64,000 bases of DNA, taken from the NCBI GenBank assembly GCA_965204945.1, contig OZ242022.1, forward strand, positions 3,554,333 through 3,618,332, in the 5' to 3' direction. Below, piece after piece: positions 13,029-59,053 of this stretch (the stretch's first letter is position 1; every line of letters starts with the position of its first letter). The notes under the pieces are model-generated. The model was not told the DNA's origin, did not search any database, and was given only the letters and a program-made list of their open reading frames with translations. Source of the stretch: Limisphaerales bacterium. GTDB taxonomy: Bacteria > Verrucomicrobiota > Verrucomicrobiia > Limisphaerales > AAA164-E04. Position numbers and translations under genes: made by a program.

Positions 13029-14306
13029 TTAGAAACAGCGGATGACTTCCGGCTTCCGACCCGGCAGTTTGCAAAAGGCCAAGCCTTCGCTCAATCGGTT
13101 TTCCGAGAATTCTTTTGCCATCACTTTTCGGCCGAAAATGCCCTTGAGCGGCGTCAATCCTCGGTCGGATTGATTGCAGGCGAAGCAGATTGCCGTGCCG
13201 ATTTGCGTCATGTAGTCGTAATCTTGGCCTTCAAAATCTTTCGGATTCTGCGAAAGAAGCGTCACCGCGCAACCTCGCTGGCGGGTTTGCGTAATCATTT
13301 CCTGAAGCGAGTCGCTGCGGTTTTTGTGCAGCACACGATTGGCTTCGTCGATCACTAGCAGATGCCGAAGCGTCCGATGCCCATTGCGAAGAGGCGCATC
13401 GTCTCTACTGAGCCAAAAGGCCGCTTCGGCGTCTAAGAGCAGCTGCATAATGAGATTTCGATAGCTCTGCGGAATGTCCGGCGAAAGGGAAAGCGCCCAA
13501 GATTGCGAGAAGAACTTTTCCGGCGGCATGGACGGCTCAAAGACATGAAAACGCGTGAGTTCGCTCAGCACGCTGGAAACGCTGTCGGGATGGGCGTTTT
13601 CTTCTTCCAGAGCGGCGTCATAAGCGGATTGGATGCCGTCTATACTGCGGTCCGCTTTGGAGCGGGCGACGCTTTCCACACAATTCAAAAGACGGTTTTT
13701 CTGCGTAGTGCTTGCCGAGTGCGCCGGCCGGCACAAAGAATCGCGCAAACGGATGCAAGCGCCTTGCAAGGCGGTGTTGCCTCGGCTCGCTTTGGGAAGA
13801 AAGTCCAGCGGAATGGCTTCGCTGCCGACCACCAGCGTATTCACATCGGCAATTTCATTAAAGGCTTTGTGATACTGACATCCGGGAGCAAAGTCTGGTT
13901 TGGGATCAATGTAAAGCAATGGAGCGCGAGTTTTCTGGAGAATTTGACGGATCAAATGAACGCCGATGCGGGTTTTGCCGGTGCCGGTTTTTCCCATGAG
14001 GACAATGTGCGGCGAGCCGGGTCCGTTGAGCGCAAAGTCCACGAATTCCCCTTCCGGATGCGTCTTGCCAACCGGCCCCAAGCGCAATCGAACCGCGCCA
14101 GAAACCTCCGCGGCGGGAGAATCGATGGTTGCCTCCGTTGCCGAGGATTCCGGCAAAAGGTTGGCGAGGCTCTGCGCCAACTTCGCCACTTCACCCTTCG
14201 CCTTTTCCCAATCATCGAGAATCCACTTGCCGCCGCGCGCCCAATGCGCTTCCACCGCCTTGCGAAAGTCATCCAAGCGGTCGTTGGCGTCATCCAAAGC
14301 GTCCAC
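13029..14306 (-). CDS. HerA/FtsK-like (DUF87-type) P-loop ATPase
   Basis: Walker A LMGKTGTGKT, Walker B LLVIDEANRV, then RQRGCAVTLLSQNPKDF, which resembles the HerA/FtsK RKxG...TQRP block. The listed start is GTG. An ATG at 14331 comes into frame if the A5 run (14321-14325) is one base shorter. Confidence 0.7.
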   Translation of the reverse strand: MDALDDANDRLDDFRKAVEAHWARGGKWILDDWEKAKGEVAKLAQSLANLLPESSATEATIDSPAAEVSGAVRLRLGPVGKTHPEGEFVDFALNGPGSPHIVLMGKTGTGKTRIGVHLIRQILQKTRAPLLYIDPKPDFAPGCQYHKAFNEIADVNTLVVGSEAIPLDFLPKASRGNTALQGACIRLRDSLCRPAHSASTTQKNRLLNCVESVARSKADRSIDGIQSAYDAALEEENAHPDSVSSVLSELTRFHVFEPSMPPEKFFSQSWALSLSPDIPQSYRNLIMQLLLDAEAAFWLSRDDAPLRNGHRTLRHLLVIDEANRVLHKNRSDSLQEMITQTRQRGCAVTLLSQNPKDFEGQDYDYMTQIGTAICFACNQSDRGLTPLKGIFGRKVMAKEFSENRLSEGLAFCKLPGRKPEVIRCF

Positions 14307-14400
14307 CGCGTCGCGGTATCTTTTTGCTCATTGGCGCAAGTTGTCCACGTGTTTGACAACGGATCATAAACTAAATCCTATGGCGAAAGGAAATTCCTTT

Positions 14401-14817
14401 TTACTTGTTATCTAAATAAGTTTTCAGGCGAGCTATCTTGCGCTTGAATGCACGATCATTTTTCATATCATGTTCCCAAAATCTAATAACATTCCAGCCT
14501 TTGCCTTTTAAATGCTTGACAACGGATTTATCACGTTTGACGTTGCGGGAGATTTTGCCTTCCCAATAATTTCGATTCGTTAAAGGCATGCGACAATGTT
14601 TTGGACAACCATGCCAAAAGCATCCATCTATAAATACGGCAATCTTTTGTTTTGTAAACACAAAATCAGGGCGGCCATAAAGCGAATAATTCCGTCGCCA
14701 TCCGGTAACTTTTGCAATGCGAAGAAGTTTGATAAAGGCTAATTCTGTCGAGCCATTGCCTTTTGAAGTAATGCTTCCCATAATTTGTGAACGTTTTTGG
14801 CGAGAGACGGTATCCAT
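14401..14817 (-). CDS. vsr: Very short patch repair endonuclease
   Basis: RSQIMGSI...TELAFIKLL...GRPDFVF...IAVFIDGCFWHGCPKHC...NRNYWEGKI.RN..RD are canonical Vsr motifs. The ATG at 14817 is 2 nt after the upstream stop. Confidence 0.9.
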   Translation of the reverse strand: MDTVSRQKRSQIMGSITSKGNGSTELAFIKLLRIAKVTGWRRNYSLYGRPDFVFTKQKIAVFIDGCFWHGCPKHCRMPLTNRNYWEGKISRNVKRDKSVVKHLKGKGWNVIRFWEHDMKNDRAFKRKIARLKTYLDNK

Positions 14818-14819
14818 GT

Positions 14820-15554
14820 TCACAAAACTTCCACCCAAGAGTCGTCAAATTTCAATACGTCTAAAATTTGATCCTGATCCAGCTGATGGGGTTTCCGAAT
14901 CCGAATGGCCAAGCGATTATCCGCAACGGATTCGATGATTGTAAATTGTGATCCATGAGGTTGCCATGTAAAGACATGTGCGTCATCTTTTCTTGAATGA
15001 CCTTGCAAGTTATTTCGCTTGTTCCACTTCCACCAATATTCACCGCTTGGATAGATGACTGTTTCAAATTCAAACACGGCAAGTTCAAGAAGATCATCTG
15101 ATTTTATGAGCACAACGGTGCGAACGTGTTTGTAGAGTTTTCGGATACCAGCGACTCGTTCGTTCCAAATGGAAAGCACCTTTTCTCCCAATTCATTTGG
15201 ATCGCATTCGCTAACCTTTTGGTCTCCAAACGAATAAACGGGTGAGTTTCTGCCCGATATTAAGCGGATTTTTGAAACCGTTGCCGGGCGTTTATTTTTA
15301 ATGGTTTTGGCGCCCCAAGCAGTTTGTTGTAAGATTATATCATCCAAACCAACATTGGAAGGTTTCCATTTAGCTCCAACAAGTCGAGCAAATATCTCCT
15401 CCCAATCTGACCCCTCCAAGCGAGGCGTACCTCGCGATGCTAAGAAATAAACAATTTCCTTTCCCAATTTGAGAGCAAAATCTTTTGGAAAAGTATTGAG
15501 AGGATAAGGTGGTTGGTATTTCTCAACAGTGCGAAGCTTTGGTCTTTTTTCCAT
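14820..15554 (-). CDS. Type II restriction endonuclease candidate (partner of the m5C methyltransferase)
   Basis: 244-aa AT-rich ORF sandwiched between the C5-MTase and Vsr, overlapping the MTase gene by 32 nt. No specific family recognised; the call rests on context. Confidence 0.55.
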   Translation of the reverse strand: MEKRPKLRTVEKYQPPYPLNTFPKDFALKLGKEIVYFLASRGTPRLEGSDWEEIFARLVGAKWKPSNVGLDDIILQQTAWGAKTIKNKRPATVSKIRLISGRNSPVYSFGDQKVSECDPNELGEKVLSIWNERVAGIRKLYKHVRTVVLIKSDDLLELAVFEFETVIYPSGEYWWKWNKRNNLQGHSRKDDAHVFTWQPHGSQFTIIESVADNRLAIRIRKPHQLDQDQILDVLKFDDSWVEVL

Positions 15555-16578
15555 ATTTGACTTTCTCTTCTAATAGAATCATCCGTTTGTGGACAGATTT
15601 TTCTCTTCTGATGAATTCATTGTACACTCCGTTATGCCAGCTTTGAGCTGTGAACAGTTGAAAGATTACAGATTGCGCAACAGGCACGGGAAGACTGTTT
15701 CCAGCTTGCTTTCTTGTTTGGCTGTCATTGCAAACTATCTGGAACGAATCTGGAAAACCTTGAAGTCGAAGCATTTCTCGCGGAGTAAGACGACGTTCGC
15801 CATTCACAAGAAGGTAGTTATAGGAAGCACCAGCTCTCAAGGCGCAGGAAAAGGGGTATGCGCTAATATGCCCACCTTTATTCTCGTGCCAGATCGTGGG
15901 TTCACAAGTAGGCGGATGTTTGGACAATCGCTTCTTTCTGATGTGATCGGAAACGAAGTACTTTTTTGAAACATCCTTTTCCAAGACAGATTCTAGAGAA
16001 ATCATCTCGACGTTTTCATTTGGCCAAACGAGCATTTCTCCTTTCCGCGTCCCAACGATAAAAATACGTTCTCGTTTCTGAGGCAAACCGAAATCTAGAG
16101 CATTCAAAATTCGACAATCGCAGTTGTAACCCAGTTCACTCAGAGATTCCAAAATGCGATTCAGCGTTTCGCCACTATTGTGGCCTTTCAGCGTTTTGAC
16201 ATTCTCAAGAACAAACGCAGCGGGTTTTTTACTTTTGATAATTCGAGCAATCTCGAAAAACAACGTGCCTCGAGCGTCATCGAATCCTCTTCGATGGCCG
16301 ATGATGCTGAACGGTTGGCAGGGAAATCCGGCAAGAAGCAAGTCGTGATTGGGAATTTTTGAGACGCGAATTTTGGAGATGTCCCCGGCCGGTCGCTCGT
16401 TAAAATTCGCTTCGTACGCCTCTTGGCAACCTTCGTCAATGTCGGATGAAAAGACGCACTTGGCATGAACGCCGAGCAAAGAAGCCGCTTTTTCGGCGGC
16501 AATGCGGAAGCCTCCGATGCCGCAGAACAAATCGACGAATCGAATCTTGGTTTTTCGAACACTGCTTTTCATTTCCAA
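15523..16578 (-). CDS. DNA (cytosine-5)-methyltransferase
   Basis: Motif I FVDLFCGIGGF, motif IV GFPCQPFS, motif VI ENV, motif VIII QKRERIFIVG, motif X GNSLPVPV. Confidence 0.95.
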   Translation of the reverse strand: MEMKSSVRKTKIRFVDLFCGIGGFRIAAEKAASLLGVHAKCVFSSDIDEGCQEAYEANFNERPAGDISKIRVSKIPNHDLLLAGFPCQPFSIIGHRRGFDDARGTLFFEIARIIKSKKPAAFVLENVKTLKGHNSGETLNRILESLSELGYNCDCRILNALDFGLPQKRERIFIVGTRKGEMLVWPNENVEMISLESVLEKDVSKKYFVSDHIRKKRLSKHPPTCEPTIWHENKGGHISAYPFSCALRAGASYNYLLVNGERRLTPREMLRLQGFPDSFQIVCNDSQTRKQAGNSLPVPVAQSVIFQLFTAQSWHNGVYNEFIRREKSVHKRMILLEEKVKYGKKTKASHC

Positions 16579-16629: not shown

Positions 16630-17616
16630 CTATTTTGAATCGGACTCTGGCAAAATGTTGCGCGCTACCTCAATCACTTTTAAATCCGAATCGCTTGAAG
16701 TTTGCCCGATAAAACCGGTTGGGACGTTGCCGAAAACAGCTCGAGTCGCCTCCATTAAAACGGCGTCTTTGGTTTGCGTTTGCGCCGCCGCGTTGGAAAA
16801 CGCTTGGAGGGTGCGAATGCTGTTCGCTCGATGATTGTTGATTATGGCGAGATGTTTCAACGCTCTGTAGTTGCGGCCGCACCAGATCGTTCCCGTCAGC
16901 AACACAGCCAAAATAACCATCTTTGTGCCGATTTTCTGGAAGATCTGGCCTTGATCCAATCCAGACTCCGTCCAAAACCACATCCCTAAGGCTACCACCA
17001 CGGTGACGAATGCAGCTCCAATCGTTCCCCTCAACCATATTTTGGCGCTCTTTTCCATTTTGCCGGCAACATTCTCGAAGTCTTTCGTAAAGACAGCAGC
17101 GCCTGCCTTTGCTGATGCTTCGCGAGCTTTGGCGATGATCTCTTCCATCTCGGATGCACCTTTCTTAGCGGCGGTCACTGTCTTCTCGACTTCCTTCGCC
17201 GAACGAGTAATCTTCTCGATGTTCTGATCGATATCGCCGCGTTGGCAAGCCAAATAAGCCGCCCACGGAGCTGATGTCTCAAAAAACGGATTCGTCGATT
17301 GTTGAATGGATCTAACGTGGTAAGATTTGTCCGAATTACCAGAGATCCCAAGACTGAATTGATCGAGATGTTCGAAACTCACAGCCACCTGACGAGTGAG
17401 TGCATTGATGTTGTCAATCGTTTTTTCCAAAAGACGTTCGAGAGGCAAATTAATCAATTGCTGGGCAAGTCTGTAGGTGCGCTCAATGTTCGATTGAATT
17501 TCTTCAAAATGGAACTCTCCCCATTCTCGACGCCTGATGAGTCTCGACTGATCGAGATTGAGAATGCGTTGCAGTTCCTTTTTGAGATTGCTGACTTTTT
17601 CCGATTCGTTAGCCAT
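16630..17616 (-). CDS. Hypothetical 2-TM membrane protein with long helical N-terminal domain
   Basis: 328-aa ORF. The N-terminal ~190 aa is charged and helical (repeats of K/E/A). Two hydrophobic helices follow (GTIGAAFVTVVVALGMWFW and MVILAVLLTGTIWCG), then a ~90-aa C-terminal domain. It is the first gene of the RM gene string. Confidence 0.6.
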   Translation of the reverse strand: MANESEKVSNLKKELQRILNLDQSRLIRRREWGEFHFEEIQSNIERTYRLAQQLINLPLERLLEKTIDNINALTRQVAVSFEHLDQFSLGISGNSDKSYHVRSIQQSTNPFFETSAPWAAYLACQRGDIDQNIEKITRSAKEVEKTVTAAKKGASEMEEIIAKAREASAKAGAAVFTKDFENVAGKMEKSAKIWLRGTIGAAFVTVVVALGMWFWTESGLDQGQIFQKIGTKMVILAVLLTGTIWCGRNYRALKHLAIINNHRANSIRTLQAFSNAAAQTQTKDAVLMEATRAVFGNVPTGFIGQTSSDSDLKVIEVARNILPESDSK

Positions 17617-25059: not shown

Positions 25060-25680
25060 TTAGGGATTCGGCATCTGGAAAAGTTCGGATTGTGTCCAGG
25101 GGAGGGTTCGTCCGGCGGTTTCGGCACGGATGGTTTTGACTTGTTCGGCGGTTACGGGGTCGGCTTCGTTGCCCCATTCGGACTGCCCTCGGATGTAGGT
25201 TGCAAGGGAAGCGAGTTCTTCGTCGTCTTCGATGGTGTCTCGCCAAGGCACCATTTGCACCGAAGTATTCCATTGGACGCCGCTGACCATGATGGGGCCG
25301 GTCAGTCCGTTCAGGATTACGCGGAGGACTCGGTTGGGGCTTTCGGCGTTGACCCAGTCCGATCCGGCCAAAGGAGGATATTGGCCGGGGCTGCCGGCGC
25401 CGTTGTTTTGGTGACAAGGAGCGCAGTATTTGGCATATGCTTTCCGGCCTTTTTCAAAGCGTGGATCTACGTTCTTTTGAGGTTGAGCGGCTGCGAGAAT
25501 GTCGTGCGAGGCAAAGGGTTCGTATACTTTGGCATGGAATCCTCCGGCGTTGCTGTCGAGGTATAGGGTGGCTAGGTAGATAAGCACGAAAAAGGCCACG
25601 CAAAAAGGAATCGGCACTGGCGCCTGCGACGCGTGGGGTTCGAATTCCGTTAAATTTGAAGATTCTTCCGCCATTTCCAA
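25060..25680 (-). CDS. Membrane-anchored monoheme cytochrome c
   Basis: N-terminal TM (PFCVAFFVLIYLATLYL), one CAPCH heme-binding site, and a distal Met region (VQMVPW). It is the last gene of the respiratory operon. Confidence 0.8.
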   Translation of the reverse strand: MEMAEESSNLTEFEPHASQAPVPIPFCVAFFVLIYLATLYLDSNAGGFHAKVYEPFASHDILAAAQPQKNVDPRFEKGRKAYAKYCAPCHQNNGAGSPGQYPPLAGSDWVNAESPNRVLRVILNGLTGPIMVSGVQWNTSVQMVPWRDTIEDDEELASLATYIRGQSEWGNEADPVTAEQVKTIRAETAGRTLPWTQSELFQMPNP

Positions 25681-25682
25681 AA

Positions 25683-26588
25683 CTATTTTGTTTGCTCCGC
25701 TTGGTTCTTGATGGATTGGGAATTGATTTTGTCGGCTTCGTCCGGTTGAGTGAGCAGTCCCGGCGCTTCAAAAACCGTCTGGTCCAATCGTAAACTGACT
25801 AAGTAAGCCGCCAAGTCTCGGGCCTCGGGCTTGGGGATGATTTGTCGGCCTTGGGCGTCCGTAACCAACTTGCCTTCGTGCCGCAAGGCGTTGGCGTCTC
25901 CGCCGTCGCCGCGCAGGTCTCGTGTTTCGAAGAGATAGCGGTAACTCGGCATGATTGAGTTTTTGACGACTTTTCTTGATTGAAAAAGATGGAGCAGATG
26001 CCAATTCGAATCGGGTCTCCGGTTGCCGATATTCGACAAGTCCGGGCCGATTCGCTGGGATCCCAACATGGTCGTTTGATCCAGCAAGTAGTCTCGCGCC
26101 ACGGTTCGTCGAAATCCCCAGCCGCGCCGAATGTCGGCGTCTACGGGATGGTTCACCCGGCGAACTGAGGCTCCTTTATCGAGCCAGCTGCCGGCGATGC
26201 GATTGGCTTCTACAAGGGGAAGCCCGTCTTGAATGGTGAACGGAGTTGAGGGCAGGGGGGTTCCTTCTTGGAACCGGCCGTCGGCTAGGGACGACAATGC
26301 CTTGCCAATTTGCGCGGTGTTTGGTCCCCAGTCGTCGGCCACTAGGGAAAATTGATAGTTTTTTTGGCGGACTTGTTGGGTATGGCAACTGACGCAACCG
26401 TTTCGGCGATAAACGTCTAGGCCTCGATTGGCGGCTCCGGTTCGAGGCAGGGGAAATATTTTTCCAGTAGTCTCGTCCTGTTCGGGAATTTGGTTTCCCA
26501 ACTGTAACTGCGGGCTGTGGACGAAGCTGAACCACGAGGAAATCATCGCGAACAGCACGCCGAAAAAGAGCAACACTCCGTTGTTCAT
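25683..26588 (-). CDS. CcoO-like monoheme cytochrome c with large internal insertion
   Basis: N-terminal TM, GLDVYRRNGCVSCHTQQV (compare FixO GRNIYVREGCYLCHSQMI), and later RIGPDLSNIG...WHLLHL...SIMPSYRYLF. About 80-90 extra residues lie between these blocks. The ATG at 26588 overlaps the upstream TGA (ATGA). The ORF-track extension to 27047 is rejected. Confidence 0.8.
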   Translation of the reverse strand: MNNGVLLFFGVLFAMISSWFSFVHSPQLQLGNQIPEQDETTGKIFPLPRTGAANRGLDVYRRNGCVSCHTQQVRQKNYQFSLVADDWGPNTAQIGKALSSLADGRFQEGTPLPSTPFTIQDGLPLVEANRIAGSWLDKGASVRRVNHPVDADIRRGWGFRRTVARDYLLDQTTMLGSQRIGPDLSNIGNRRPDSNWHLLHLFQSRKVVKNSIMPSYRYLFETRDLRGDGGDANALRHEGKLVTDAQGRQIIPKPEARDLAAYLVSLRLDQTVFEAPGLLTQPDEADKINSQSIKNQAEQTK

Positions 26589-28204
26589 AGTTTTTTCTTG
26601 GCAGCCGTTTTGGCTCGTTTTTTCTTGGCGGCGATTGTTTTTGCCGCGGTCTTCTTCGTCAGTGTTTTTTTGGATTCCTTTTTCTTTGCCGTTGCGCGGC
26701 GCCGTGCCGACGCGGTTGCACTTAGTTTTTCTACGGCTTTGGGAACTTCCGCATTGGGAAGCCAACTCAGAATTCTTTTCTCGCCGCAGAAGAACGCCCG
26801 ATAGCCGATTCGCTCGATATTCGCAAGGAACAAGAGACTGCTTCCCGCTAAAAGCAACCAGCCAAAGAACGCCAAGCGGTTGAAAATCACCGTCCAGTCC
26901 ATGATCGCGGCAAAGGGAATCAAAATGGAAGTATGGCTCATTTCTTTGCCCTGAATCAAACCGCCCGCCCCGTTGACGGCGATAACCAAGCCCCATCCAA
27001 GCGCGGCGACCCAGAAGTGCCAATTCACCAACTTGCGGTCCGGCCATTCCGCGTCGAGAATTCGAGGCAGCAGATAGTAGGCGATTCCAAAAACAGCCAT
27101 TGAGAAAAATCCTCCCAAGACCAATTGATTCAACGCGGTCAACACCATCGTAAACTGCGTAAGATCGGCAACCCCTTTAAGCGCGTTGACGGCGCCTAAA
27201 ATGCCGGCCAGAAGGAAAGAGAGCAAACTGACGGAAACAAAGCGAAAATCCGGGTGCCACAAGCGATGCATTTGATTTCCCATCGTCAAATAAAGGTTCC
27301 AGCCAATCATAATCGCGGCAAAACAGACGAAAAAGGACATGACCGTGCTCAGACCGGAAATCCAGGAAGGAACCGTCGTTCCAGAAAGGATTCCCGCCCC
27401 GTTGCCAAAGAACAACAACAACCAGAACGAAAACAAAGCCAGGTAGCGGCTGTGGAGGGGACGGCGGAGCAATTTGGGAATGAGATAAAAAATGACGGCC
27501 AATCCAACGCTCCCCAACACTAAGGTCTTCAACCCGGCCGCATACCAACCGGCAATCACCGCCTGGGCAACCCCGCGTACGGGATAGAAATGCAACAACA
27601 AGCCGGCGGCGCTGAAAATCCACGGAAACCAAAGCAAGGCCGCAAAGAGAAACCATTGAGAAATATAAAGTTCCCCTGCCCGCCTGCGCCAGAAGGTCAC
27701 AAAAGCCAAGCCGCCAACGATGGAATAAGCGACGAAGAGAATGGGGACGGCGTATTTTGGAATCTCGAACAACTCATACGACGAGGCGCCGTCGCTCGCC
27801 AAAATTCCCACAACCCCCGCCAAAACGCCGAAGTTCCAAAAGGCAACCCCTAGACAAACATAGCCGGGTTGCGCGAGAGCCGTCCGTCCCATCCGCACCA
27901 GTAGCCAAAGAGCCGCGCCCATAGCCGATTGGAGGGCGAAGCCATAGATAAACGCCGCATTCTCCGCCGCTCGAACTCGCCCAAAAGTCAACCAAGAATA
28001 ATGAGAGAGAAAGTCGGGATCATAAAACCGAAAGGAATTAAGCAGGGCAAACAACGACCCCAGAAACAGCCATCCGGCCGACTTCCAGAGCAAGAACAAA
28101 ACCGGCATCCGACAAGATCGATCCAATTCCCGGACCGAAGTTTCCTTGCTCAAATCCACGGACGCCGCGCTCGAATCCCTAGCTATACTGTCTGTTTCGA
28201 TCAT
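26585..28204 (-). CDS. CcoN (cbb3 subunit I)-like polytopic protein lacking the canonical His ligands; Lys-rich C-terminal tail
   Basis: About 12 hydrophobic helices with FixN/CcoN-like framework strings (WLTFGRVR, GWY, FYLIPKLLRRP, MHRLWHPDFRF, VNWHFW). The ligand positions read AENA, WYAAG, GAGIL and TALNQLV instead of LHTN, WYGHN, GPHHL and GHVHAG. The ATG at 28204 is preferred; the ORF extends to 28279. Confidence 0.75.
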   Translation of the reverse strand: MIETDSIARDSSAASVDLSKETSVRELDRSCRMPVLFLLWKSAGWLFLGSLFALLNSFRFYDPDFLSHYSWLTFGRVRAAENAAFIYGFALQSAMGAALWLLVRMGRTALAQPGYVCLGVAFWNFGVLAGVVGILASDGASSYELFEIPKYAVPILFVAYSIVGGLAFVTFWRRRAGELYISQWFLFAALLWFPWIFSAAGLLLHFYPVRGVAQAVIAGWYAAGLKTLVLGSVGLAVIFYLIPKLLRRPLHSRYLALFSFWLLLFFGNGAGILSGTTVPSWISGLSTVMSFFVCFAAIMIGWNLYLTMGNQMHRLWHPDFRFVSVSLLSFLLAGILGAVNALKGVADLTQFTMVLTALNQLVLGGFFSMAVFGIAYYLLPRILDAEWPDRKLVNWHFWVAALGWGLVIAVNGAGGLIQGKEMSHTSILIPFAAIMDWTVIFNRLAFFGWLLLAGSSLLFLANIERIGYRAFFCGEKRILSWLPNAEVPKAVEKLSATASARRRATAKKKESKKTLTKKTAAKTIAAKKKRAKTAAKKKL

Positions 28205-28226
28205 GAGTCTTTTCGACTTATCGACG

Positions 28227-28607
28227 CTATTCAAATTCGCTGGGAGTTTCCAGCGGAGGCGACGGAGGCGCGACGGCAAGATCCACTCGTTCCGCCATCC
28301 TTTGCCGCGCCTTTTCTGGTTGTTTCCATTCTTGAATCATCATTTGGACGGCTTGATCTATTGGCATCCTATAAATGCCTTTTTCGGCGTTGACTACGCC
28401 GTAGCTCATCAACATTTCCTCTTCGGCAGATCGCAGTTCCGCCAAATTTGCTTTCCGAAGCTTTGCCCGCTCGGCGCCGATGGACGGAGGTCTGGTAGAC
28501 TCCCAGGTCAGCCGAAGCAGCGCGGCCATAGCGCAAAACAAACCAACGGCTAACAGAAAGCGAAGAAAGACGCCGCCTTTGTTTCCGTCGATTTTCAACG
28601 TTCTCAT
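28227..28607 (-). CDS. Small single-TM membrane protein (ActG-like position)
   Basis: 126 aa from the ATG at 28607, 11 nt after the actF stop. One TM (VFLRFLLAVGLFCAMAALL). The assignment rests only on its position between actF and the CcoN-like gene. Confidence 0.45.
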   Translation of the reverse strand: MRTLKIDGNKGGVFLRFLLAVGLFCAMAALLRLTWESTRPPSIGAERAKLRKANLAELRSAEEEMLMSYGVVNAEKGIYRMPIDQAVQMMIQEWKQPEKARQRMAERVDLAVAPPSPPLETPSEFE

Positions 28608-28617
28608 GATAGCGTTG

Positions 28618-29925
28618 TTAGGCTTCATCCACAATTTGATTGCTTGAATTCTTGTTGGACGGTTCTGGAGATGCCGAAAGCGGCCGGACATACATTCCCA
28701 ACGTCTCGGCAATGCGGGGGTCTCGTTGAGGAAAGGGAGGATGCCGGCGCAAGGTCTTGATAAAGTATTTGGCAAACAATCCCGCCATCAGCGACATACT
28801 GCCTAGCCCCCAAAGCAGGCTGGAGGCAAACAACGCGCCATCGCCCGTGGGGTTGTAAACTGGTTTCACGTTGAAGGACATGCAGGCGTAATGCATCAAC
28901 CAAGCCCACATGCACATGGGAATCATCACCGGCAAACATAGTTTGACGTCCAGACGCAGTAAAAAGAGAAAGGGAATAAAGAAGTGACCAAATATAAGAA
29001 GCAAACCTACGCTGTGCCAAACGCCTCGATCTCGCTTCGCATACCAGAAGGTTTCCTCCGGAATGGCCGCATTCCAAATCAAAAAATACTGGGAAAAGTG
29101 GATATAGGCATAGAAAACGGTGAATGCAAAAAAGAGCGTTCCGATGTCTTTGAAAGTGCTCTTTTGAATGATCGGCGCCAGATGTCCCGTTCTTTGTAGC
29201 ACAAGGGCGATTATATAAGTCGTCGCCAAAGTCGTCCACACGCTGCCCGCAAAATAGTAAGCGCCGTACATAGTGGAAAACCACTGATACTCTAAAGATT
29301 TCATCCAATAAAATGCGCCCAAGGTCAACGTGAAGGCAAAGATAAAAATCCCCACGGCGGCGTAACGGCGCATACTAATCGTGCAGGAAGCCGCGCCGGA
29401 TTTATCTTGCTCCAACGATTGCTTGCGCAAACTTCCACCCAGCCACCACCATGCGGCGAACAAAATGCATGATATAAGAAAAAACGAAATCGGATGATAC
29501 ATGATCCGTTTTATTTCCAAGGCATGATCGTGCGCAGGGCTTTCCCAAACCGCCCATGGATAAATCGAGCCGCTCCCTGACAAAACAACTAGCAAGATTG
29601 GCAGAAACAACCCCGCCAAGACCGGAATCGAACAGGCGATGTGTTCTAGAAACCTCCGCAACGGCACTAGCCAATAAGTGTCCAGGAGATGATGAAGAAT
29701 CACAAGGAACAAGGATCCTAAAACCAAGCTCAAGAAAAACATGTAGGCCGTGATATAGGAGGCGGCAAGGGTTTGGTGCAAACGCCAGGCGGGAGGAGAC
29801 CAAAACCCAAGCAAAAGCCCCAAGAGGAGTAGCAAGCCTCCCATGATGGCCAACCGATCCGGCCATTTTGCCCATTTCGACAAATCAAGACGGTCTTCGT
29901 TTTTGGATTTCATCGACTGGCTCAT
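28618..29925 (-). CDS. actF: Alternative Complex III subunit ActF (polytopic membrane subunit)
   Basis: 435-aa multi-pass membrane ORF directly after actE, in the canonical actABCDEF order. Confidence 0.75.
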   Translation of the reverse strand: MSQSMKSKNEDRLDLSKWAKWPDRLAIMGGLLLLLGLLLGFWSPPAWRLHQTLAASYITAYMFFLSLVLGSLFLVILHHLLDTYWLVPLRRFLEHIACSIPVLAGLFLPILLVVLSGSGSIYPWAVWESPAHDHALEIKRIMYHPISFFLISCILFAAWWWLGGSLRKQSLEQDKSGAASCTISMRRYAAVGIFIFAFTLTLGAFYWMKSLEYQWFSTMYGAYYFAGSVWTTLATTYIIALVLQRTGHLAPIIQKSTFKDIGTLFFAFTVFYAYIHFSQYFLIWNAAIPEETFWYAKRDRGVWHSVGLLLIFGHFFIPFLFLLRLDVKLCLPVMIPMCMWAWLMHYACMSFNVKPVYNPTGDGALFASSLLWGLGSMSLMAGLFAKYFIKTLRRHPPFPQRDPRIAETLGMYVRPLSASPEPSNKNSSNQIVDEA

Positions 29926-29928
29926 TTT

Positions 29929-30546
29929 TCAATTCTGCCGCAAAGCGGCGCGTTCGTCTTCGGGAAGTTCTTCCGCGATTGCCAAGCGGGATCGTTGCAA
30001 GGCTCTCATATAGGCCACAATGGCCCAGCGGTCGGCAATGTCGATCGCCGCGCCGTAAGCCCCCATTAAGTTTTTGCCGTGAGTGATGGTATGGAAAATT
30101 TCTCCGGCCGACATTTTGACGAGACGCGGGTCATGAAAGTTGGCGACGGCCACCATTCCATATTTTGTGATAATTCCCTTTCCGTCCCCCGCCGCGCCGT
30201 GGCAGGGGGCGCAGTGGATGGTGTAGCGTTGCCGTCCGCGATTCAAGAGCGTCTCTTCCACCGGCAAGGGAATTGTGTCGACAAAGTTTGTCGAGCCTGA
30301 AACGCGTCCCGTGTTCACCGGCCAGTCTTGATAAGCGTCGCCCCGCGCAACGGTTCCTTCCACGTAAAGTTGCGAGCTGCGTCTGTTTTCGAAGAATTCG
30401 TTTCCGGACTGGGGGCGCAGCTTGATTTGTCTGTCCATGTCTGGGAAGACCTCCCGCGGCGGTTTGGCCGACTTTGCGCCGCGAAAGCCGGCGATGCTGA
30501 CGACGGCGACGATAATCAAGATGTAAACGGCAAGAAAACAGCGCAT
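29929..30546 (-). CDS. actE: Alternative Complex III subunit ActE (monoheme cytochrome c)
   Basis: N-terminal anchor, a single CAPCHG heme site, and the typical ...HTITHGKNLMGAYG... (Met ligand region). Confidence 0.8.
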   Translation of the reverse strand: MRCFLAVYILIIVAVVSIAGFRGAKSAKPPREVFPDMDRQIKLRPQSGNEFFENRRSSQLYVEGTVARGDAYQDWPVNTGRVSGSTNFVDTIPLPVEETLLNRGRQRYTIHCAPCHGAAGDGKGIITKYGMVAVANFHDPRLVKMSAGEIFHTITHGKNLMGAYGAAIDIADRWAIVAYMRALQRSRLAIAEELPEDERAALRQN

Positions 30547-30551
30547 TCTTC

Positions 30552-31088
30552 CTACTCCTCCACAATCTCCAAATGGCTGCTACCCGCTTTCAAGAGCAGC
30601 GCACGGGTTTTTTCCTCGTCGTATTCTGGGTCGGCGCATTCGATGACAACGTAGAATTTGTCATGGGTTGCGTTTGCAAAGCGCCGATTTTTCAAAAGCG
30701 GATGATGCAGGCGCGGCAAGCGATTCAGAAACAGCATTCCAAAGAGGGATCCGAAGGCGGCCAGCAAAATGGTCAACTCAAAACCCACCGGAAAAGCGGA
30801 AAAAGGACTGAAAAGAGGCTTTCCTCCGACGGCAATTCCGTAGTCGGCGGAGTTCATAAACCAGATCATCCAGTTGCCTCCAAAGTATCCAATCATGCCG
30901 CCGCAAATGGTAAACCAGCCGACTGGGGAGTTTTTCAAGCCCATGGCCTTGTCCATGCCGTGAACGGGAAAGGGGGTGTGAACGTCCCATCGAGTGTAGC
31001 CCGCATTCCTGATGTTGGAGGCCGCCTCCATCACTGAAGCGGGGGTGTCAAACTCGGCCAGAACGCCGTATTGCCTTCCTTCGCTCAT
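30552..31088 (-). CDS. actD: Alternative Complex III subunit ActD (DUF3341)
   Basis: YGVLAEFDTPASVMEAASNIRNAGYTRWDVHTPFPVHG is the DUF3341 signature, followed by two TM helices. The ATG at 31088 lies 4 nt after the actC stop; the ORF extends to 31118. Confidence 0.8.
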   Translation of the reverse strand: MSEGRQYGVLAEFDTPASVMEAASNIRNAGYTRWDVHTPFPVHGMDKAMGLKNSPVGWFTICGGMIGYFGGNWMIWFMNSADYGIAVGGKPLFSPFSAFPVGFELTILLAAFGSLFGMLFLNRLPRLHHPLLKNRRFANATHDKFYVVIECADPEYDEEKTRALLLKAGSSHLEIVEE

Positions 31089-31092
31089 TTGC

Positions 31093-32517
31093 TCAGTGTT
31101 TTTTTCCTTTCCGTCCACCTTGCGGATGATGCGGGTCCGCCTGAGGAGTCACGCCTTTGACTTCCGAAATCGCAATCAACGGCAGAAACCGCACAAACAG
31201 CAGGAACAGAGCCATAAAAAACCCCAAGGTTCCAACATACGTCAATACGTCGACAACGGTTGGCGAGTAATGTCCCCAGTTAGCCGGAAGATAATCCCGA
31301 TGCAGGGAAGTCACCACGATGACGAAACGCTCAAACCACATGCCCACGTTCACTAAAATCGACAGAGCAAAGACCCAGACCATGTGGGTTCGAATCTTCT
31401 TGAACCAGAAAAATTGCGGAACCAGCACGTTGCAGGAGATCATAATCCAATAAGCCCACCAATACGGCCCGAAGGCTCGATTCTGAAAGGCGTACGCTTC
31501 ATAAGGATTTCCGCCGTACCAAGCGATGAAGACTTCCATTCCGTAGGCGTATCCGACGATGCATCCGGTTGCCAGAGTGACTTTGCACATCAATTCAATG
31601 TGCCGCACGGTGATTACGTCTTCCAGCTTGAGGAGCGAACGAAGCGGTATCAGCAGGGTAAGCACCATGCCAAAGCCGGAGAAAATGGCGCCGGCAACGA
31701 AATACGGAGGGAAAATTGTGGTATGCCAGCCCGGCAGCTGCGACACGGCAAAGTCAAAGGAAACGATGCTGTGCACCGACAACACTAGCGGCGTCGAAAG
31801 AGCGGCCAGCAGAAGATAAGCCTTCTCATAGTGACTCCAATGCCGGTTGGATCCCGTCCAACCCAACGAAAACAGCCCGTAGAAAAACTTGCGCGTCATG
31901 GTTTTGGCGCGGTCTCGAATGGTCGCCAAATCGGGAATCAAACCCATATACCAGAAAAGAAGCGAGACCGTGAAGTAAGTGGACACCGCAAACACGTCCC
32001 ATAAAAGAGGAGAGCGGAACTGCGGCCAAACGGGGCCTTGCGAATTAGGCAAGGGAAAAAGCCACCACGCAAACCAGATGCGCCCCACGTGAATGGCTGG
32101 AAAAATGCCGGCGCACATCACGGCGAAAATCGTCATCGCCTCCGCCGCCCGGTTGATGGAAGTGCGCCATCTTTGCCGCAGAAGGAACAGAATGGCAGAA
32201 ATCAACGTGCCGGCATGGCCGATGCCGATCCACCAAACGAAGTTGACGATGGCCCAACCCCAAGCGACCGGATGATTGACGCCCCATACACCTACGCCGA
32301 CCGAGATGAGATAGCCGATCATAAGGAAGCAAAGAATCGCAATCGGCAGACTGGTTAGAAAGGCAATCCACCACCAAGATGGCGTCTTGCCTTCCACAAT
32401 CCCCGAAATTCGATCCGACAGCCAGCCCAATGAGCGGTTGTTGGAGACTAACGGCTCTCGCTCCAACTCGCGCGGCGCCGGCGCAATAGAAAGCTTGTCG
32501 TGCGTTTGCCCAGTCAT
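31093..32517 (-). CDS. actC: Alternative Complex III subunit ActC (NrfD/PsrC-like quinol-interacting membrane subunit)
   Basis: About 10 TM helices and NrfD-like strings ([26 protein letters not shown]). The ATG at 32517 lies 4 nt after the actB stop; an alternative GTG is at 32547. Confidence 0.85.
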
Positions 32518-32521
32518 CGCT

Positions 32522-35500
32522 CTAGTGATGCCCTTCGACTTCTCCACTCGTCGAAACGCCTTGGTCGCCTCGATGATGCCCTTCGATATGCGGCGATCCG
32601 TGGGAATCGAAGGGGTTTCCCATGCTTTCCGAGTATTCCATCGTGCTCAACGGAGTCTCATGATAGTCGGGCATTTCAGGATTCGGGTTGCGAACTTTGG
32701 CCAGATAGGTCGTTCTTGGACGGGTATCCAGAAAGCCCAAAACCGCATAATTTCTTGGATTTGCCTTCATCTTGGATACTCGGCTCTTTGGCCGGCCAAT
32801 TGTGTTGCCAAAGACGATGGCGTCCGCCGGGCAGGCTTGTTCGCAAGCGGTTTGAATGGTTCCGTCTGGAACGGCGATTTCGCCGGAGTCTCGCGCCGCC
32901 ACTTTTCGCTGAATTTTTGCCGCTTCAATTCGCTGAACGCAAAAGGTGCATTTCTCCATCACGCCGCGCATCCGCACGGAAACGTCGGGGTTTTTGGCCA
33001 AGGCGGCTAAATCTAAATCGTTTTTTCCCCGCTTGGCCAAGGGGCCTTGGTAGAGGGCTTCCAGAGGCCTCTTATTGTAGTCAAAAAAGTTGAACCGCCG
33101 CACCTTCCAAGCGCAGTTGTTGGAACAGTATCGCGTTCCCACGCAACGATTGTAGGCCATGACGTTCAAGCCTTCGTGGTCGTGGACGGTGGCGTTCACG
33201 GGGCAGACGCTTTCGCAAGGCGCGCTCTCGCAGTGCTGGCAAAGCATGGGCTGGCTGACTACCTGAGGATTGTCGATCCAAGATTGGCGCTGATACTCGC
33301 CGTCCGCCTCCAGTCCGCTGAGTTCGGCTTTGGCCTCGGGGCCGCCGCTGTAATAGCGGTCAATGCGCAACCAATGCATCTCCCGGCTCTTGGCCACTTG
33401 CTCTTTGCCGACGATGGGGATGTTGTTTTCGCTTTGGCAAGCCGCGACGCAAGCGGAACAACCGATGCAACGGTTGAGATCAATGGCCATGCCCCACTGG
33501 TGAATCTCGCTCTTGAGCGATCCCCGCTCTTCGTAAGGATGCGGATACAGAGGGAGAGGCTTGCCATCCGCGCCGTGCGTGTGTTCCCCGTGCGCTTCCA
33601 AACCCATGTTGCGGGCAAAGTTCGGTTTTTCGTGGAACTGCTTGAGGTTCGCCTCGCGCACGATGGCCCTGCCTTCCATCGACCAATGATCCTGCGTCGC
33701 CACCAGCTTGTGTTTGCGTCCCGTCGGAGAAATCGACGCTCCCGAAACGACGTAGACGCCTTCGCTACGCCGAATGGGATACACGTCGAATCCGACTGCT
33801 CGGCCTTTGAATCGTCCAATACGACCTGACTTTGCCCGACCGTAGCCTAAGGCCAGCCCGACGGAAAAGTCCGCCATTCCGGGTTGCACCAACGCGGGAC
33901 CAAGCACCGAATTTCCCAATTTTCCGCCCGCAGGAATCCGAATTTGGACGACGTCGCCATTGGACACGCTTAATTCAGAGGCAGTCTTTCGGCTCATGAC
34001 GACGGCGTTGTCCCATGTGAGTTTTGTGATTGGATCGGGCAACTCCTGCATCCAGCCGTTGTTGTTGAATCGGCCGTCGTCCATGCTGGCGTCCCGATGA
34101 AACACCACTTCAATTTCTTCCCGACTCGGCAACGGCGCGGGGGACTCGTTGGCAAGCGCCGCCCTTACTTCATTCCATTGAAATTCTCCAACAGCAACAA
34201 CTGGGGCGGCGCTGCCGTCGACAAAGCCGTCGTGAAGAAAAGTCTTCCACTCCTCTTCGCCGGCATCGTCCACTTCGGCGGCAAACGCGTCGCGAACCAA
34301 AGTGTGCGGGCGCGGGTCTTCCCGTTGGATCAACCTCGCCAAAAGCTCAATTTCCGTTAATCCACCAAACAATGGAGCAATCAGGGGTTGCACCGTCGTT
34401 CGCGTTCCGTCGCCGGTTTGCGCGTCGCCCCAGGATTCCAAAAAGTGCAATTCCGGCAGATGCCACGCCGCGCCTTCGGAGCTTTCGTCGACGTGATAGC
34501 CAAGCCGAATCACCTCGCCCGCCTTCTTTACGGAATCAGTCCAACGCATGCCCGCCGGCGCGTCGTAAGCGGGATTGCCGCCGAGGATGACCAAAGTTTC
34601 CACCAAATTGCTTTCCAAAGACTCTTGAAGTTCGCCGATCGTTCCCGCCGCTTTTTCTTGCGGGTCGGCAACGAAGTTCAGCGTTTGCCCGATGTTGCCC
34701 AGCGCGTGGTTCAGCGCCAGCGCCATTAGATGCACGGCGAGCGATTGACGATAGCCGGCCACAACCAGCGAGCGGCCGCGATGGGCATTTAGATCCCGCA
34801 ACGCTTCTTTGACCCAGTTTTTTGTGTCATCTTGTTGGATTTCTTTAGTCTGCTCTTCCAGTTTTCGCCGCAACTCTGAAGCAATGCGAGAGGCGCCCGC
34901 CGGCAAGTTTTCTCCTTCCAGCATCGCATGCAGAAAAGCGGCGGCAATCGGTTGCACCACGCCCGTCGGCACGCGGAGACGATGGTCCGCATTCGAACCA
35001 GTCAGCGTCATTAACCCTTCCACCGCGTAAAGGCGGTTCATTGTGTCGCCGGCTTTTTCCACTGCGCGGCGGTCTGCCCATCCTTTGACGTGGAGGCAGG
35101 CGTCTTCTTCGCCGCCCAAAAAGTCGCAATCCAAAGAAAGGATTCGTTCGGCCTTGTCAAAGTGGAGGCGGGGAGTGAGCGGTCGTCCGAAGGCCAGCGA
35201 GGCCGCTTCTGCCGAGCGTTTGAAGCTGACCGGCTCATACTCGTGCCATTTCGCCTGAGGCAACTTCTTTTCAAACAGAGATCGCAACCGTCGGCGGGTG
35301 GGTGAACTGGATTCCCTGCATAACAAGCGCAGTCCCCGGCCTTGTTTCTGGGCGTGTTTCTCAGCAATCTCCGCCAAGCGCGCCAACGAGGCTTCTTCTG
35401 AGACTGGCTTTCCTTTGTTAAGAAATTGGCGGGATCTGTCCGGGTCGTAAAGGTTTAGGATTGCTGCTTGGGCGAAGGCATCCGTGCCGCCGCCGGACAG

Positions 35501-35908
35501 AGGATGTTGTTTGTTTCCTTCGAGTTTGACTGGGCGTCCGTCCATAGACTTTGCCAACAAGGGAACGGCGTTGCGGCGGGTGGGCATTGCGGTGGCAAAG
35601 TATTTTGCCTTCCCGTGCACGTAGCCTTCGGGCAGTTTCGAGAAGGGAACGATGGTTTCCTCAGGTTTGCGGCATCCGGTCAGGCCGAATCCGGCCAAAA
35701 GAAACGAAGCGGACATCAACTTGACGAAGTCGCGCCGATTCACTTCTCCGGCCGGTTCGGAGGATCCTTCGGGGAACTCGCGGGCGGCCCACTGCCGAAA
35801 CTCGGGCGATTCCGCCAACTCATCCAAACTGCGCCAATACTGCGTCTCGGTTGGCAGTGCTGCTTTTTTCGTGGAGGAAATCGTGATCATCGATGACATG
35901 CCGAACAA
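32522..35908 (-). CDS. actB: Alternative Complex III subunit ActB (fused molybdopterin-oxidoreductase-like + 4Fe-4S ferredoxin domains, Tat signal)
   Basis: Twin-arginine leader [23 protein letters not shown]. The large MopB-like N-terminal part is followed by Cys clusters [36 protein letters not shown] and CTFCVQRI. Confidence 0.9.
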
Positions 35909-36880: not shown

Positions 36881-37103
36881 AACTTGAAGCCTCGAGCCTT
36901 TTTACAGAGTCTCCTTTCATTTTTCGAACGCGAATTTGCATCCAATTTCCGTCTTTGCGCCATTCAAAAGCGCAAAAACGAAATGCATTATCCGGGAAAA
37001 TTCGACGGTGTCAACAATGCTTGTGAAAAAAATCACAAATTCGCTTGCCGATTTTGTTTTGTCCGAGTAACTTCTTCGCAAATATGGATTCACGAGAGGC
37101 CGC

Positions 37104-52830: not shown

Positions 52831-52898
52831 ATCTTCCTTTGCCCCTCTCATTTCCCTTGTTTCCTGAAAATCCTTTTGACGTGGAAAAAGAGCAAAAC

Positions 52899-57116: not shown

Positions 57117-58311
57117 ATCCCCGGCAATGATGACTGGCGGCGGGCGACGCCGTCAAGCACTTTTCGCACCAGACCACCGGCGCATCTCCGGCCGTCGCTT
57201 GGCCGCGCGGTTGCAGCGACCATTCCCGGTTCTCCTCCGGCAGTCCGTGCTTTCCTGAGTTGTCCGCCAAGTCCAGAATGATGTAGTTGCCGCCATCCGG
57301 TTTGGGGCGCAGTCCCCGTCCCTCATTTGCAAGTAGATCGCCAGACTCATCGTAGGGCGGGTGATAAGAACGCAAGAGGCGTCTGGCAAATCAAAGCCTT
57401 CGGTGGCGATAAGAACGTTGACCAGCACTTGGACGCGGCCTTCCTTGAAACCCGTCGATGGCAGCTTTCCGTTCCGCGGGCGGAGTCTCGCTGAGGAGAA
57501 CCGCTGCTTTGACACCGGCATCGTTGAACACGGAAGTCAGGTTGCGGGCGTGTTTCTTCGAGACTGCGTAGGCGATAGTTTGCCGGTTGCCTGCATGTTC
57601 CTGCCAAAACTGCAATGCGCCGGCGGTCATAATGTTCGGGGAGTTGGCCTGCTCAATCCCGCTTTCGGTGTAATCGCCAAGCGTGCGGTTAACGGCCCCG
57701 CCAATGATGCGCTGCTTCGGCGGCGGCATCAGTGTTTGCGCTGGGCACAGATAGCCTTGCGCTTGCAGTTCCGCAACTTGCGGCCCGCAGAGCAGTTCGT
57801 CAAAGAGATGGTCAAATCCTTCTTTTTCCGACAACCGCCAGGGCGTAGCCGTCATTCCAACTACGGGGCCGGGCCACTGGTGGATTGCCCGTTCCCAGCC
57901 TTTGGCGGCTGCGTGGTGGGATTCGTCAACAATCATCAGATCAGTAGGGCGGTATTGGTTCCAAACTTCCCGTCGGGCGGTTTGGAGGCTGACCTTCTGC
58001 GCCATGAGAATGACTACTCCGCCGGCCATTGCCGGCGCGCCATCGCCGGGTGTCCATCTCACATTGGTAATGACAGAAACGCCGGCTTTGGTGAGCATTT
58101 CCCGTGTCTGCTTGGCTAGTTCCTTGCGATGGGTGAGCCAGACGGCTTTGCGCCCGCTGGTCAGCCAATCTACCAGCAGATCGCCGGCGATAATGGTTTT
58201 GCCGCCTCCGGTGGGCAGTTGCATCATCAAGCGGACCTTAGGATTGGATACCAGCACATCTTGCACACGGTCCAGCAATTCCTGCTGATAGCGACGCAGT
58301 TCAATAGCCAT
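57028..58311 (-). pseudogene. RadD-like SF2 (DEAH/ResIII-type) helicase, reading frame broken at least twice
   Basis: Motif I QLPTGGGKT, motif II IVDESHH and motif III TATPWRL lie in ORF 57391-58311. Motifs V-VI (VNVLIATEGFDLPD, ITRPTMSLAIYLQM | RGRGLR) are spread over ORFs 57153-57521 and 57028-57375, followed by a Zn-ribbon WCEKC...CRGC. The breaks are at short homopolymers (57448-57453 and 57320-57322). Confidence 0.75.
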
Positions 58312-58368
58312 AATGGAGACCCCTTTTGTTTGGTCGGCTTTCGCTCAATAACATGTCGAGAATCTTTA

Positions 58369-59046: not shown

Positions 59047-59053
59047 AGGGCAA

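Follow-up and report, generated by a model that had tools for sequence, protein, structure and literature searches.

The 64,000-nucleotide stretch of DNA analysed here, from a soil/freshwater verrucomicrobium of the order Limisphaerales (contig OZ242022.1, positions 3,554,333 to 3,618,332; hereafter the window) carries an operon for alternative complex III (ACIII), followed on the same strand by three genes that resemble those of a cbb3-type cytochrome c oxidase. The first of these encodes a homologue of the catalytic subunit I, CcoN, in which every histidine ligand of heme b, heme b3 and CuB is missing. We consider it highly probable (about 90%) that this CcoN-like protein is non-catalytic and is kept under selection. 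Judged by its sequence, it should be free of cofactors and unable to reduce O2 or NO.

A subunit I homologue without heme and copper ligands

The CcoN-like protein of 539 residues is a true homologue of heme-copper oxidase (HCO) subunit I. It matches the Pfam family COX1 with 122 bits (E 3.6e-35; cut-off 34.8 bits), and phmmer aligns it with P. stutzeri CcoN (3mk7_A) at E 1e-20. Against the cbb3 equivalog model TIGR00780 (ccoN) it scores 104 bits, far under the cut-off of 583 bits. An AlphaFold2 model (predicted local distance difference test score, pLDDT, 88.9; predicted template modelling score 0.86) has 3mk7_A as its best Foldseek match in the PDB, with a target-normalised template modelling (TM) score of 0.88 and a root-mean-square deviation (rmsd) of 2.1 Å over 448 columns. 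The 12-helix fold of subunit I is kept in this prediction. In public NCBI and JGI annotation, relatives are called 'cbb3-type cytochrome c oxidase subunit I'.

The ligand columns were located in three ways, namely by phmmer against 3mk7_A, by a MAFFT alignment with 120 homologues and by an hhalign comparison of 72 ligand-less with 21 canonical sequences (Prob 100, E 3e-137, 460 columns). All three agree that none of the six heme and CuB ligand columns contains a His. In the numbering of P. stutzeri CcoN, which is used for ligands throughout, the column of the heme b3 ligand His345 holds L358, and that of His347, the second ligand of the low-spin heme b, holds Q360; the residues at His60 and His207 are given in Table 1. 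At the CuB ligands His257 and His258 we find G271/I272 with phmmer and otherwise I272/L273 or L273/S274, never a His. The methods differ by one to two residues around this segment (F266-S274), and none of them places a Tyr or a His there.

A first reading made from the DNA letters (the sequence-only reading) had described the gene product as collinear with cbb3 subunit I and as lacking every heme and copper ligand. The COX1 match and the superposition on 3mk7_A support the former statement, and the phmmer, MAFFT and hhalign profile alignments the latter, in agreement with the structural alignment to 3mk7_A as a fourth. The canonical strings that it cites agree with P. stutzeri CcoN once the sequences are aligned. 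It had named the presence of the protein's own histidines in the ligand columns as a case that would overturn it. None of the seven (H68, H205, H251, H313, H317, H396 and H424) aligns with a ligand, and H396 corresponds to a non-ligand His that is also found in canonical CcoN.

Further residues have disappeared together with the ligands. The column of the cross-linked Tyr251 holds G267 (MAFFT) or F266 (hhalign), and is Gly in 85% of the ligand-less clade. Column comparison of this clade with its canonical sisters shows that His337 has been replaced by Gln, that a canonical-invariant Arg has also been replaced, and that T215, Y223, S240, Y317 and E323 have become Gly, Phe, Ala, Phe and Leu, respectively. 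These five are polar residues of the single cytoplasmic proton pathway of cbb3, as reportedly described by Buschmann et al. 2010. Several canonical-invariant Gly residues have given way to bulky ones, which is consistent with filled heme pockets. Nine positions are conserved specifically in the ligand-less clade, all of them hydrophobic or Gly/Ala, and no His, Met, Cys, Lys, Tyr or new polar position is conserved in this specific way in the column comparison. The clade-specific positions thus include nothing that resembles a substitute ligand or a new polar channel.

These columns also bear on whether the protein could still be a redox enzyme, an unconventional reductase of O2, NO or another substrate that binds a heme or metal through ligands other than His. 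Altered ligation is known in the superfamily, as gNOR has an Asp for one His, and some eNORs and nNOR use His/Lys or His/Met heme ligation (PMC11214002). Early-branching relatives of the ligand-less clade with the ligand pattern HNQRYH moreover keep the two histidines of the low-spin heme b. Here, however, all six ligands are gone, and the residues that replace them (E, A, I/L/S, L and Q) are non-ligating and differ even among close relatives. Across the window protein and the 80 related loci described below there are 47 distinct six-column patterns, and the H60 column alone holds E, G, S or A among close relatives. This free variation argues against substitute ligands. A search for a His, Met, Cys, Lys or Tyr that the ligand-less clade alone conserves found none, and alternative ligands were rejected on these grounds. 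The heme-propionate partners (His337 and the Arg), the catalytic Tyr and ccoS are lost as well. A nitric oxide reductase, for its part, would have a high-spin heme His and a His-based FeB/CuB site, and there is no His in any active-site column. We regard a surviving reductase activity as very unlikely.

The CcoN-like protein ends in a Lys/Ala-rich polybasic tail (…AKKKESKKTLTKKTAAKTIAAKKKRAKTAAKKKL) which is kept in most close relatives, has low pLDDT and is presumably cytoplasmic. The tail is missing from canonical CcoN and from the more distant ligand-less relatives, whose proteins are shorter by about 50 residues, and its sole family match is a K/A-rich segment of a valyl-tRNA synthetase (ValRS) model.

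Absence of the maturation gene ccoS

CcoS is needed for cofactor insertion into CcoN. We examined four distinct canonical contexts, of which two are linked to ACIII (L081 and L085, in the order actABCDEF-small-fixS-ccoN-ccoO-cytochrome c) and two stand alone (L084 and L086, fixS-ccoN-ccoO). In all four, a FixS/CcoS gene of 63-70 codons overlaps the start of ccoN. A hidden Markov model built from the FixS sequences of these loci was searched against six-frame translations. It recovers the canonical loci at E 1e-29 to 1e-34 and detects a remnant devoid of a transmembrane helix in L083, a locus with a partial ligand set (E 4e-4). At the level of the locus, no fixS/ccoS was found by this search in the window or in the 80 ligand-less loci (best E 0.9). 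In the window, 22 nucleotides separate the stop codon of the preceding small gene from the ATG of the CcoN-like gene, so that there is no room for ccoS there. The loss of ccoS alongside the ligands fits a cofactor-free protein.

In three canonical Chthoniobacterales CcoN sequences (P0509, P0511 and P0515), FixS (PF03597) and COX1 domains are found together, as an apparent fusion or a read-through of overlapping genes.

Conservation, synteny and selection

Taking one genome per species, we collected 80 related loci from at least 80 genomes, almost all of which are labelled Verrucomicrobiota. They belong mainly to Limisphaerales/Pedosphaera, with two from Luteolibacter/Akkermansiaceae; the nearest relatives are Limisphaerales metagenome-assembled genomes (MAGs), with the locus L001 (OZ241891.1) at 93% identity. 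The CcoN-like orthologues are 33-93% identical to the window protein, their open reading frames (ORFs) are intact, and none of the 80 has a full ligand set. The gene actF is present in 77/77 loci with enough upstream DNA and the CcoO-like gene in 76/76 with enough downstream DNA, and of the 45 loci with the complete set of nine genes, 44 share order and strand. ORFs within 7 kb either side of the 80 loci were clustered, and none was common to more than 17 loci.

A search of 1.84 billion cluster representatives with a ligand-less profile returned 145 new proteins among its best 150 matches. At least two ligands are absent from 141 of these, and in 82 all six columns are devoid of His. The family comprises at least 141 distinct clusters at 50% identity.

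For the CcoN-like gene, the ratio of non-synonymous to synonymous substitution rates (dN/dS) comes to 0.24, 0.21 and 0.20 against L001, L002 and L003, respectively, close to the 0.18-0.24 of the CcoO-like gene; actC, the most conserved gene of the operon, has 0.07. An orthologue survey and dN/dS had been named beforehand as checks on the sequence-only reading. The survey shows the ligand-less form and its act linkage kept in 80 genomes, and the ratios give no sign of decay. A pseudogene in decay, or an artefact of sequencing or assembly, which the loss of catalytic residues taken alone might have suggested, is refuted and has a negligible probability: the 539-codon ORF is intact and translationally coupled, dN/dS is 0.20-0.24, the orthologues in 80 genomes are intact down to 33% identity, at least 141 distinct clusters are known, and AlphaFold2 confidence is high.

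Eight of the operon contigs (L012, L040, L047, L053, L055, L058, L071 and L073) were deposited under MAG names such as Klebsiella, Bifidobacterium and Akkermansia muciniphila, most likely owing to mis-binning or mislabelling.

Descent from ACIII-linked cbb3 oxidases

In a tree rooted on P. stutzeri, the canonical proteins form a basal grade and all proteins lacking ligands form one nested clade; as a neighbour-joining tree from a single alignment, it is not decisive. Forms that have only the heme b pair (HNQRYH and HSQK..) branch first within the clade, and fully ligand-less ones later. Some members of the canonical grade come from the same ACIII operon (L081 and L085). A homologue search with the canonical P0058 has Chthoniobacterales and Terrimicrobiaceae sequences among the matches listed. 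An ancestor of this lineage had a genuine fixS-ccoN-ccoO-cytochrome c oxidase, in some lineages right after actABCDEF. In one clade, mainly Limisphaerales/Pedosphaerales, CcoN has lost all its ligands, the Tyr and the presumed proton-pathway residues, and the adjacent fixS has been lost too.

The change in constraint can be read from a comparison within the operon. The window and L081/L085 share 72-77% identity in ActC and 37-39% in CcoN. The two canonical loci are 82% identical to each other in CcoN, 89% in ActC and 69% in ActB, whereas ligand-less pairs at matched ActC and ActB divergence reach only 48-60% in the CcoN-like protein. The latter evolves faster than each ACIII subunit compared (ActB, ActC and ActF). 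Constraint on CcoN has therefore relaxed from among the strongest in the operon to the weakest, and the gene is still under purifying selection.

The HNQRYH sister group is represented by L083 (10001-11506; P0062 clade) and also by P0064, P0068, P0078, P0081 and P0086. Both low-spin heme b histidines are kept in these forms, and a Tyr stands in place of the heme b3 His. Besides its FixS remnant, L083 contains a CcoO gene that seems to be frameshifted and, 5 kb downstream, an A-type oxidase. The group may represent a one-heme stage in the gradual loss of all cofactors.

The ACIII operon and the partner cytochromes

Ten minus-strand genes lie head to tail in the window (Table 1), beginning with actABCDEF, continuing with a small gene for a protein with one transmembrane helix, and ending with the CcoN-like gene, the CcoO-like gene and the gene for a CAPCH cytochrome c. 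The assignment to ACIII is direct because of the ActD, NrfD, Fer4 and multiheme Pfam matches and the numbers of CxxCH motifs in ActA (five) and ActE (one). A pentaheme ActA, an Fe-S ActB, an NrfD-type ActC, ActD, a monoheme ActE and ActF are all present. The actA product is 62-93% identical to that of the first gene in related loci, and the actF product has no Pfam match. The small protein has homologues at 69 of the 80 loci and at the canonical L081 and L085, and matches no Pfam or NCBIfam family.

This layout agrees with the sequence-only reading, which had reported an intact gene of about 540 codons (539 by our count) with its TGA overlapping the ATG of the CcoO-like gene (ATGA at 26588-26585), the three oxidase-like genes directly after actABCDEF and the small gene on one strand (as the ORF map has them), and a membrane-anchored CAPCH cytochrome c as the third of these genes (25060-25680; an alternative start, ATG at 25674, is possible). 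It was also right that the CcoO-like protein keeps CVSCH and the Met of 'SIMPSY'. Its estimate of 80-90 extra residues between the two has to be lowered to about 71, the distance from CxxCH to GPDL being 116 residues vs 45 in the canonical sister.

The CcoO-like residues C65, C68, H69 and the axial ligand M213 are invariant in 52 homologues, and the CxxCH of this protein is found in every related locus. The third cytochrome has one CxxCH in 65/65 loci where it was found, and is orthologous to the third gene of the canonical operons (37-41% identity).

The additional segment of the CcoO-like protein resembles the C-terminal domain of L7/L12. Matches to the Pfam family Ribosomal_L12 (PF00542) occur in 29 of the 52 homologues (best E 5.4e-8), the window copy alone being below significance. 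AlphaFold2 predicts a beta-alpha-beta-alpha-beta fold with pLDDT of about 90, and Foldseek matches it to 2zjq_5 (TM score 0.78) and 1ctf (0.73), with rmsd of 2.4-2.5 Å and weak E values of 0.06-0.16. Outside the insert, the model of the CcoO-like protein is of moderate confidence only (pLDDT 72). To our knowledge, no such domain has been described in a membrane-anchored, presumably periplasmic cytochrome.

The two cytochromes help to judge whether the CcoN-like protein is a purely structural or assembly remnant, on which folding or stability of ACIII or of the CcoO-like protein would depend and which would have no part in electron transfer. Its co-conservation with ACIII and the strongly relaxed constraint compared with canonical CcoN would be in keeping with such a remnant. 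The invariance of the CcoO-like heme c motif and axial Met and the usual persistence of the third cytochrome are, however, hard to understand without a redox role, and the gain of a new, well-conserved domain by the CcoO-like protein suggests an active function. We judge a remnant of this kind to be improbable.

Other features of the window

Upstream of the operon, nuoB begins divergently at 37104. A sigma-70-like promoter candidate precedes actA; the number of such sites in the region does not exceed the shuffled expectation. A terminator scan gave no convincing candidate 3' of the third cytochrome gene. Flanking ORFs have Pfam matches to mutS, pyrD, shikimate dehydrogenase, DNA methylases and transporters.

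DNA-modification genes lie at two patches of low GC content (14001-16000 and 58001-60000; 0.45 vs about 0.54 for the window), which are probably acquired restriction-modification or defence islets. An ORF of 896 residues (52827-55517, plus strand) seems to join a Kelch beta-propeller resembling N-acetylneuraminate epimerase with a sodium:solute symporter domain, a combination which suggests sialic-acid uptake and mutarotation. The sole Pfam match of another ORF (521 residues; 55551-57116, minus strand) is the C-terminal domain of the RNA polymerase alpha subunit at residues 229-288, an unusual architecture.

Table 1. Coordinates of the operon, of the ligand columns and of further features in the window.
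Feature	Position	Strand	Basis or remark
Sigma-70-like promoter candidate 5' of actA	36987..37014	-	TTGACA-16-GATAAT; 11/12 consensus match only
actA, pentaheme cytochrome c with N-terminal transmembrane helix	35887..36534	-	Five CxxCH; Pfam Cytochrome_C7/c3
actB, Fe-S/molybdopterin-like subunit	32522..35908	-	Pfam Fer4_7/Fer4_11; syntenic orthologues; start codon uncertain
actC, NrfD-type membrane subunit	31093..32547	-	Pfam NrfD, E 2.3e-23
actD	30552..31118	-	Pfam ActD (PF11821), E 1.7e-62
actE, monoheme cytochrome c (CAPCH)	29929..30546	-	Pfam Cytochrome_CBB3/Cytochrom_C; one CxxCH
actF, second polytopic membrane subunit	28618..29925	-	Sixth gene in every related operon, 30-96% identity
Small protein with one transmembrane helix, 126 residues	28227..28607	-	Between actF and the CcoN gene in ligand-less and canonical operons
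CcoN-like gene, cbb3 subunit I homologue without heme/CuB ligands, 539 codons and stop	26585..28204	-	Pfam, phmmer, MAFFT, hhalign, AlphaFold2, Foldseek
Codon E81, column of low-spin heme b ligand His60	27962..27964	-	phmmer, MAFFT, hhalign
Codon A223, column of CuB ligand His207	27536..27538	-	phmmer, MAFFT, hhalign
Codons F266-S274 (FGNGAGILS), columns of cross-linked Tyr251 and CuB ligands His257/His258	27383..27409	-	Followed by a two-residue deletion
Codons Q350-Q360 (QFTMVLTALNQ), columns of His337, His345 and His347	27125..27157	-	phmmer, MAFFT, hhalign
Lys/Ala-rich polybasic C-terminal tail of the CcoN-like protein, residues ~487-539	26588..26746	-	Close-clade alignment
CcoO-like monoheme cytochrome c, 301 residues, N-terminal transmembrane helix	25683..26588	-	Pfam FixO, 75 bits in two stretches
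L7/L12 C-terminal-domain-like insert of the CcoO-like protein, residues ~77-149	26142..26360	-	Pfam, AlphaFold2, Foldseek
Membrane-anchored monoheme cytochrome c (CAPCH), CcoP-related	25060..25680	-	Pfam Cytochrom_C/Cytochrome_CBB3; TIGR00782 ccoP, 30 bits
C5 cytosine methylase	15523-16578	-	Flanked by ORFs without Pfam match (14820-15554, 16630-17616); AAA/HerA-like ATPase at 13029-14306
N6/N4 methylase	59054-59776	-	With ResIII helicase fragment at 57391-58311

Discussion

We propose that a descendant of CcoN has been kept as a structural membrane subunit of a complex centred on ACIII. Here, the CcoN-like protein would serve as a membrane platform that holds the transmembrane-anchored CcoO-like and CcoP-like cytochromes against ACIII. 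Electrons would pass from menaquinol through the ACIII hemes to the heme c of the CcoO-like protein and from there to the third cytochrome c, an outlet that would feed an oxidase or reductase encoded elsewhere. The L7/L12-like domain may cover the vacated periplasmic face of CcoN, or else dock a partner. We lean towards this mechanism of a scaffold and an electron outlet on ACIII, and the sequence-only reading had inferred a scaffold working with ACIII and c-type cytochromes, which is the best-supported functional reading. The chances are about even that the picture can be sharpened further, to a large, ancient Verrucomicrobiota clade with an obligate ACIII supercomplex whose cofactor-free 'pseudo-oxidase' core positions a CcoO-derived cytochrome, docking through its L7/L12-like domain, as the outlet.

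A separate electron acceptor is plausible on three grounds. COX1/COX3/COX2 genes of an A-type oxidase lie at most about 5 kb downstream of the module in L072 (13242-18522), L076 (7165-8034), L080 (16148-20403) and L083 (16833-21299), in L072 and L076 directly after it. In supercomplexes, caa3 oxidases receive their electrons directly from ACIII, and oxidase clusters often come after ACIII gene clusters (PMC5928083). Finally, bd and caa3 oxidases are reported for genomes of cultivated Limisphaera, in addition to ACIII and a 'cbb3' (PMC13608581). At L072 and L076, the place of the small gene, between actF and the CcoN-like gene, is taken by an additional cytochrome c.

Several observations weigh against the scaffold and its outlet. 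No other terminal oxidase was found within the 64-kb window by Pfam searches of 20 flanking ORFs. Two of the proposed components are not obligatory, as the L7/L12-like insert is missing from about seven ligand-less loci and the third cytochrome was not detected by BLAST in five to six loci with enough downstream DNA. Lastly, all 12 helices have been kept though a pure anchor might shrink, which hints at a role beyond anchoring.

Such a role could lie in energy conservation, if ACIII had re-used the ligand-less CcoN as a module that conducts ions or protons or couples conformational changes. Purifying selection has kept many Trp, Gly and Pro framework positions along with the helices, the linkage to ACIII is obligate in the surveyed loci, and an analogy is offered by polytopic subunits without redox function, such as ActF or the antiporter-like ones of complex I. 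ACIII itself has been described as a candidate for redox-driven proton pumping, and putative proton pathways have been assigned to ActC and ActF (PMC5928083). On the other hand, the five presumed pathway residues have all been replaced by Gly, Phe, Ala or Leu, the nine clade-specific positions build no new polar network, and the protein evolves faster than ActB, ActC and ActF. We consider a conducting module unlikely, and prefer the platform for cytochromes on ACIII.

With the cbb3 oxidase (CcoN/CcoO/CcoP, 3MK7) the module shares the 12-helix fold, the gene order of subunit I, a FixO-type and a CcoP-related protein, and the heme c site of CcoO. In contrast to cbb3 oxidase, the window's CcoN-like protein has no ligands for heme b, heme b3 and CuB, no cross-linked Tyr and no adjacent ccoS/fixS, the CcoO-like protein contains the 71-residue L7/L12-like insert, and the third subunit is monoheme. 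Descent and fold place the CcoN-like protein in the HCO superfamily, but it lacks the features that define a cbb3 oxidase and so should not be filed as one.

The closest counterparts are the canonical ACIII-linked cbb3 operons L081 and L085, which have the same succession of actABCDEF, small protein, CcoN, CcoO and cytochrome c. They differ from the window in having all six His, the Tyr, an overlapping fixS and a CcoO of 216-220 residues. Canonical CcoN is second only to ActC in conservation, whereas ligand-less CcoN is the least conserved protein of its operon. A linkage of ACIII and cbb3 genes has been noted in verrucomicrobial methanotrophs and Opitutaceae, where it was treated as a genuine oxidase (PMC8498564). 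Similarly, oxidase genes follow the ACIII operon in the ACIII-caa3 systems of Rhodothermus marinus and Flavobacterium johnsoniae, in which c-type hemes carry electrons directly from ACIII to a membrane partner (PMC5928083). We use them as a working model of how the module could dock on ACIII. Unlike in these supercomplexes, in which the partner is an active A-type oxidase, the catalytic subunit would here be cofactor-less.

Divergent members of the oxidase superfamilies with changed canonical ligands are known, namely gNOR, eNOR, sNOR, nNOR, NOD and the bd-like oxidases of Nitrospira and Nitrospina. In these, one or two residues are replaced and the hemes and the metal site are kept, whereas the window protein loses all. 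Murali et al. 2024 present gNOR as the first family of the HCO superfamily in which any active-site His is replaced, and treat these residues as completely conserved otherwise (PMC11214002). We found no precedent for an HCO subunit I retained non-catalytically, and a full-text literature search gave no description of a ligand-less CcoN family, though its coverage was incomplete and this is absence of evidence. In mitochondrial bc1, inactive peptidase-like core proteins are retained as structural subunits. The CcoN-like protein resembles them in that an enzyme fold is retained structurally after the loss of catalytic residues; fold and complex differ.

The genes annotated as a high-affinity cbb3 oxidase in the ligand-less clade almost certainly cannot reduce oxygen, to judge by the residues they encode. 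Genes for cbb3 are commonly read as markers of high-affinity, microaerobic respiration, a reading which is almost certainly false in this clade. If so, cbb3 calls in genomes and MAGs of Limisphaerales/Pedosphaerales, and the microaerobic lifestyles inferred from them, would be systematically wrong. It is also unusual that a cytochrome which is membrane-anchored and presumably periplasmic has apparently recruited a ribosomal L7/L12-type domain.

Taken together, a family of at least about 140 clusters at 50% identity has lost ligands up to the full set, via visible intermediates, and provides a natural experiment on the uses of the subunit I fold. If the conclusion holds, this would be the first HCO family known to abandon redox chemistry altogether. 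The module also offers a testable case for the hand-off of electrons from ACIII, and suggests that ACIII-oxidase supercomplexes can outlive the oxidase.

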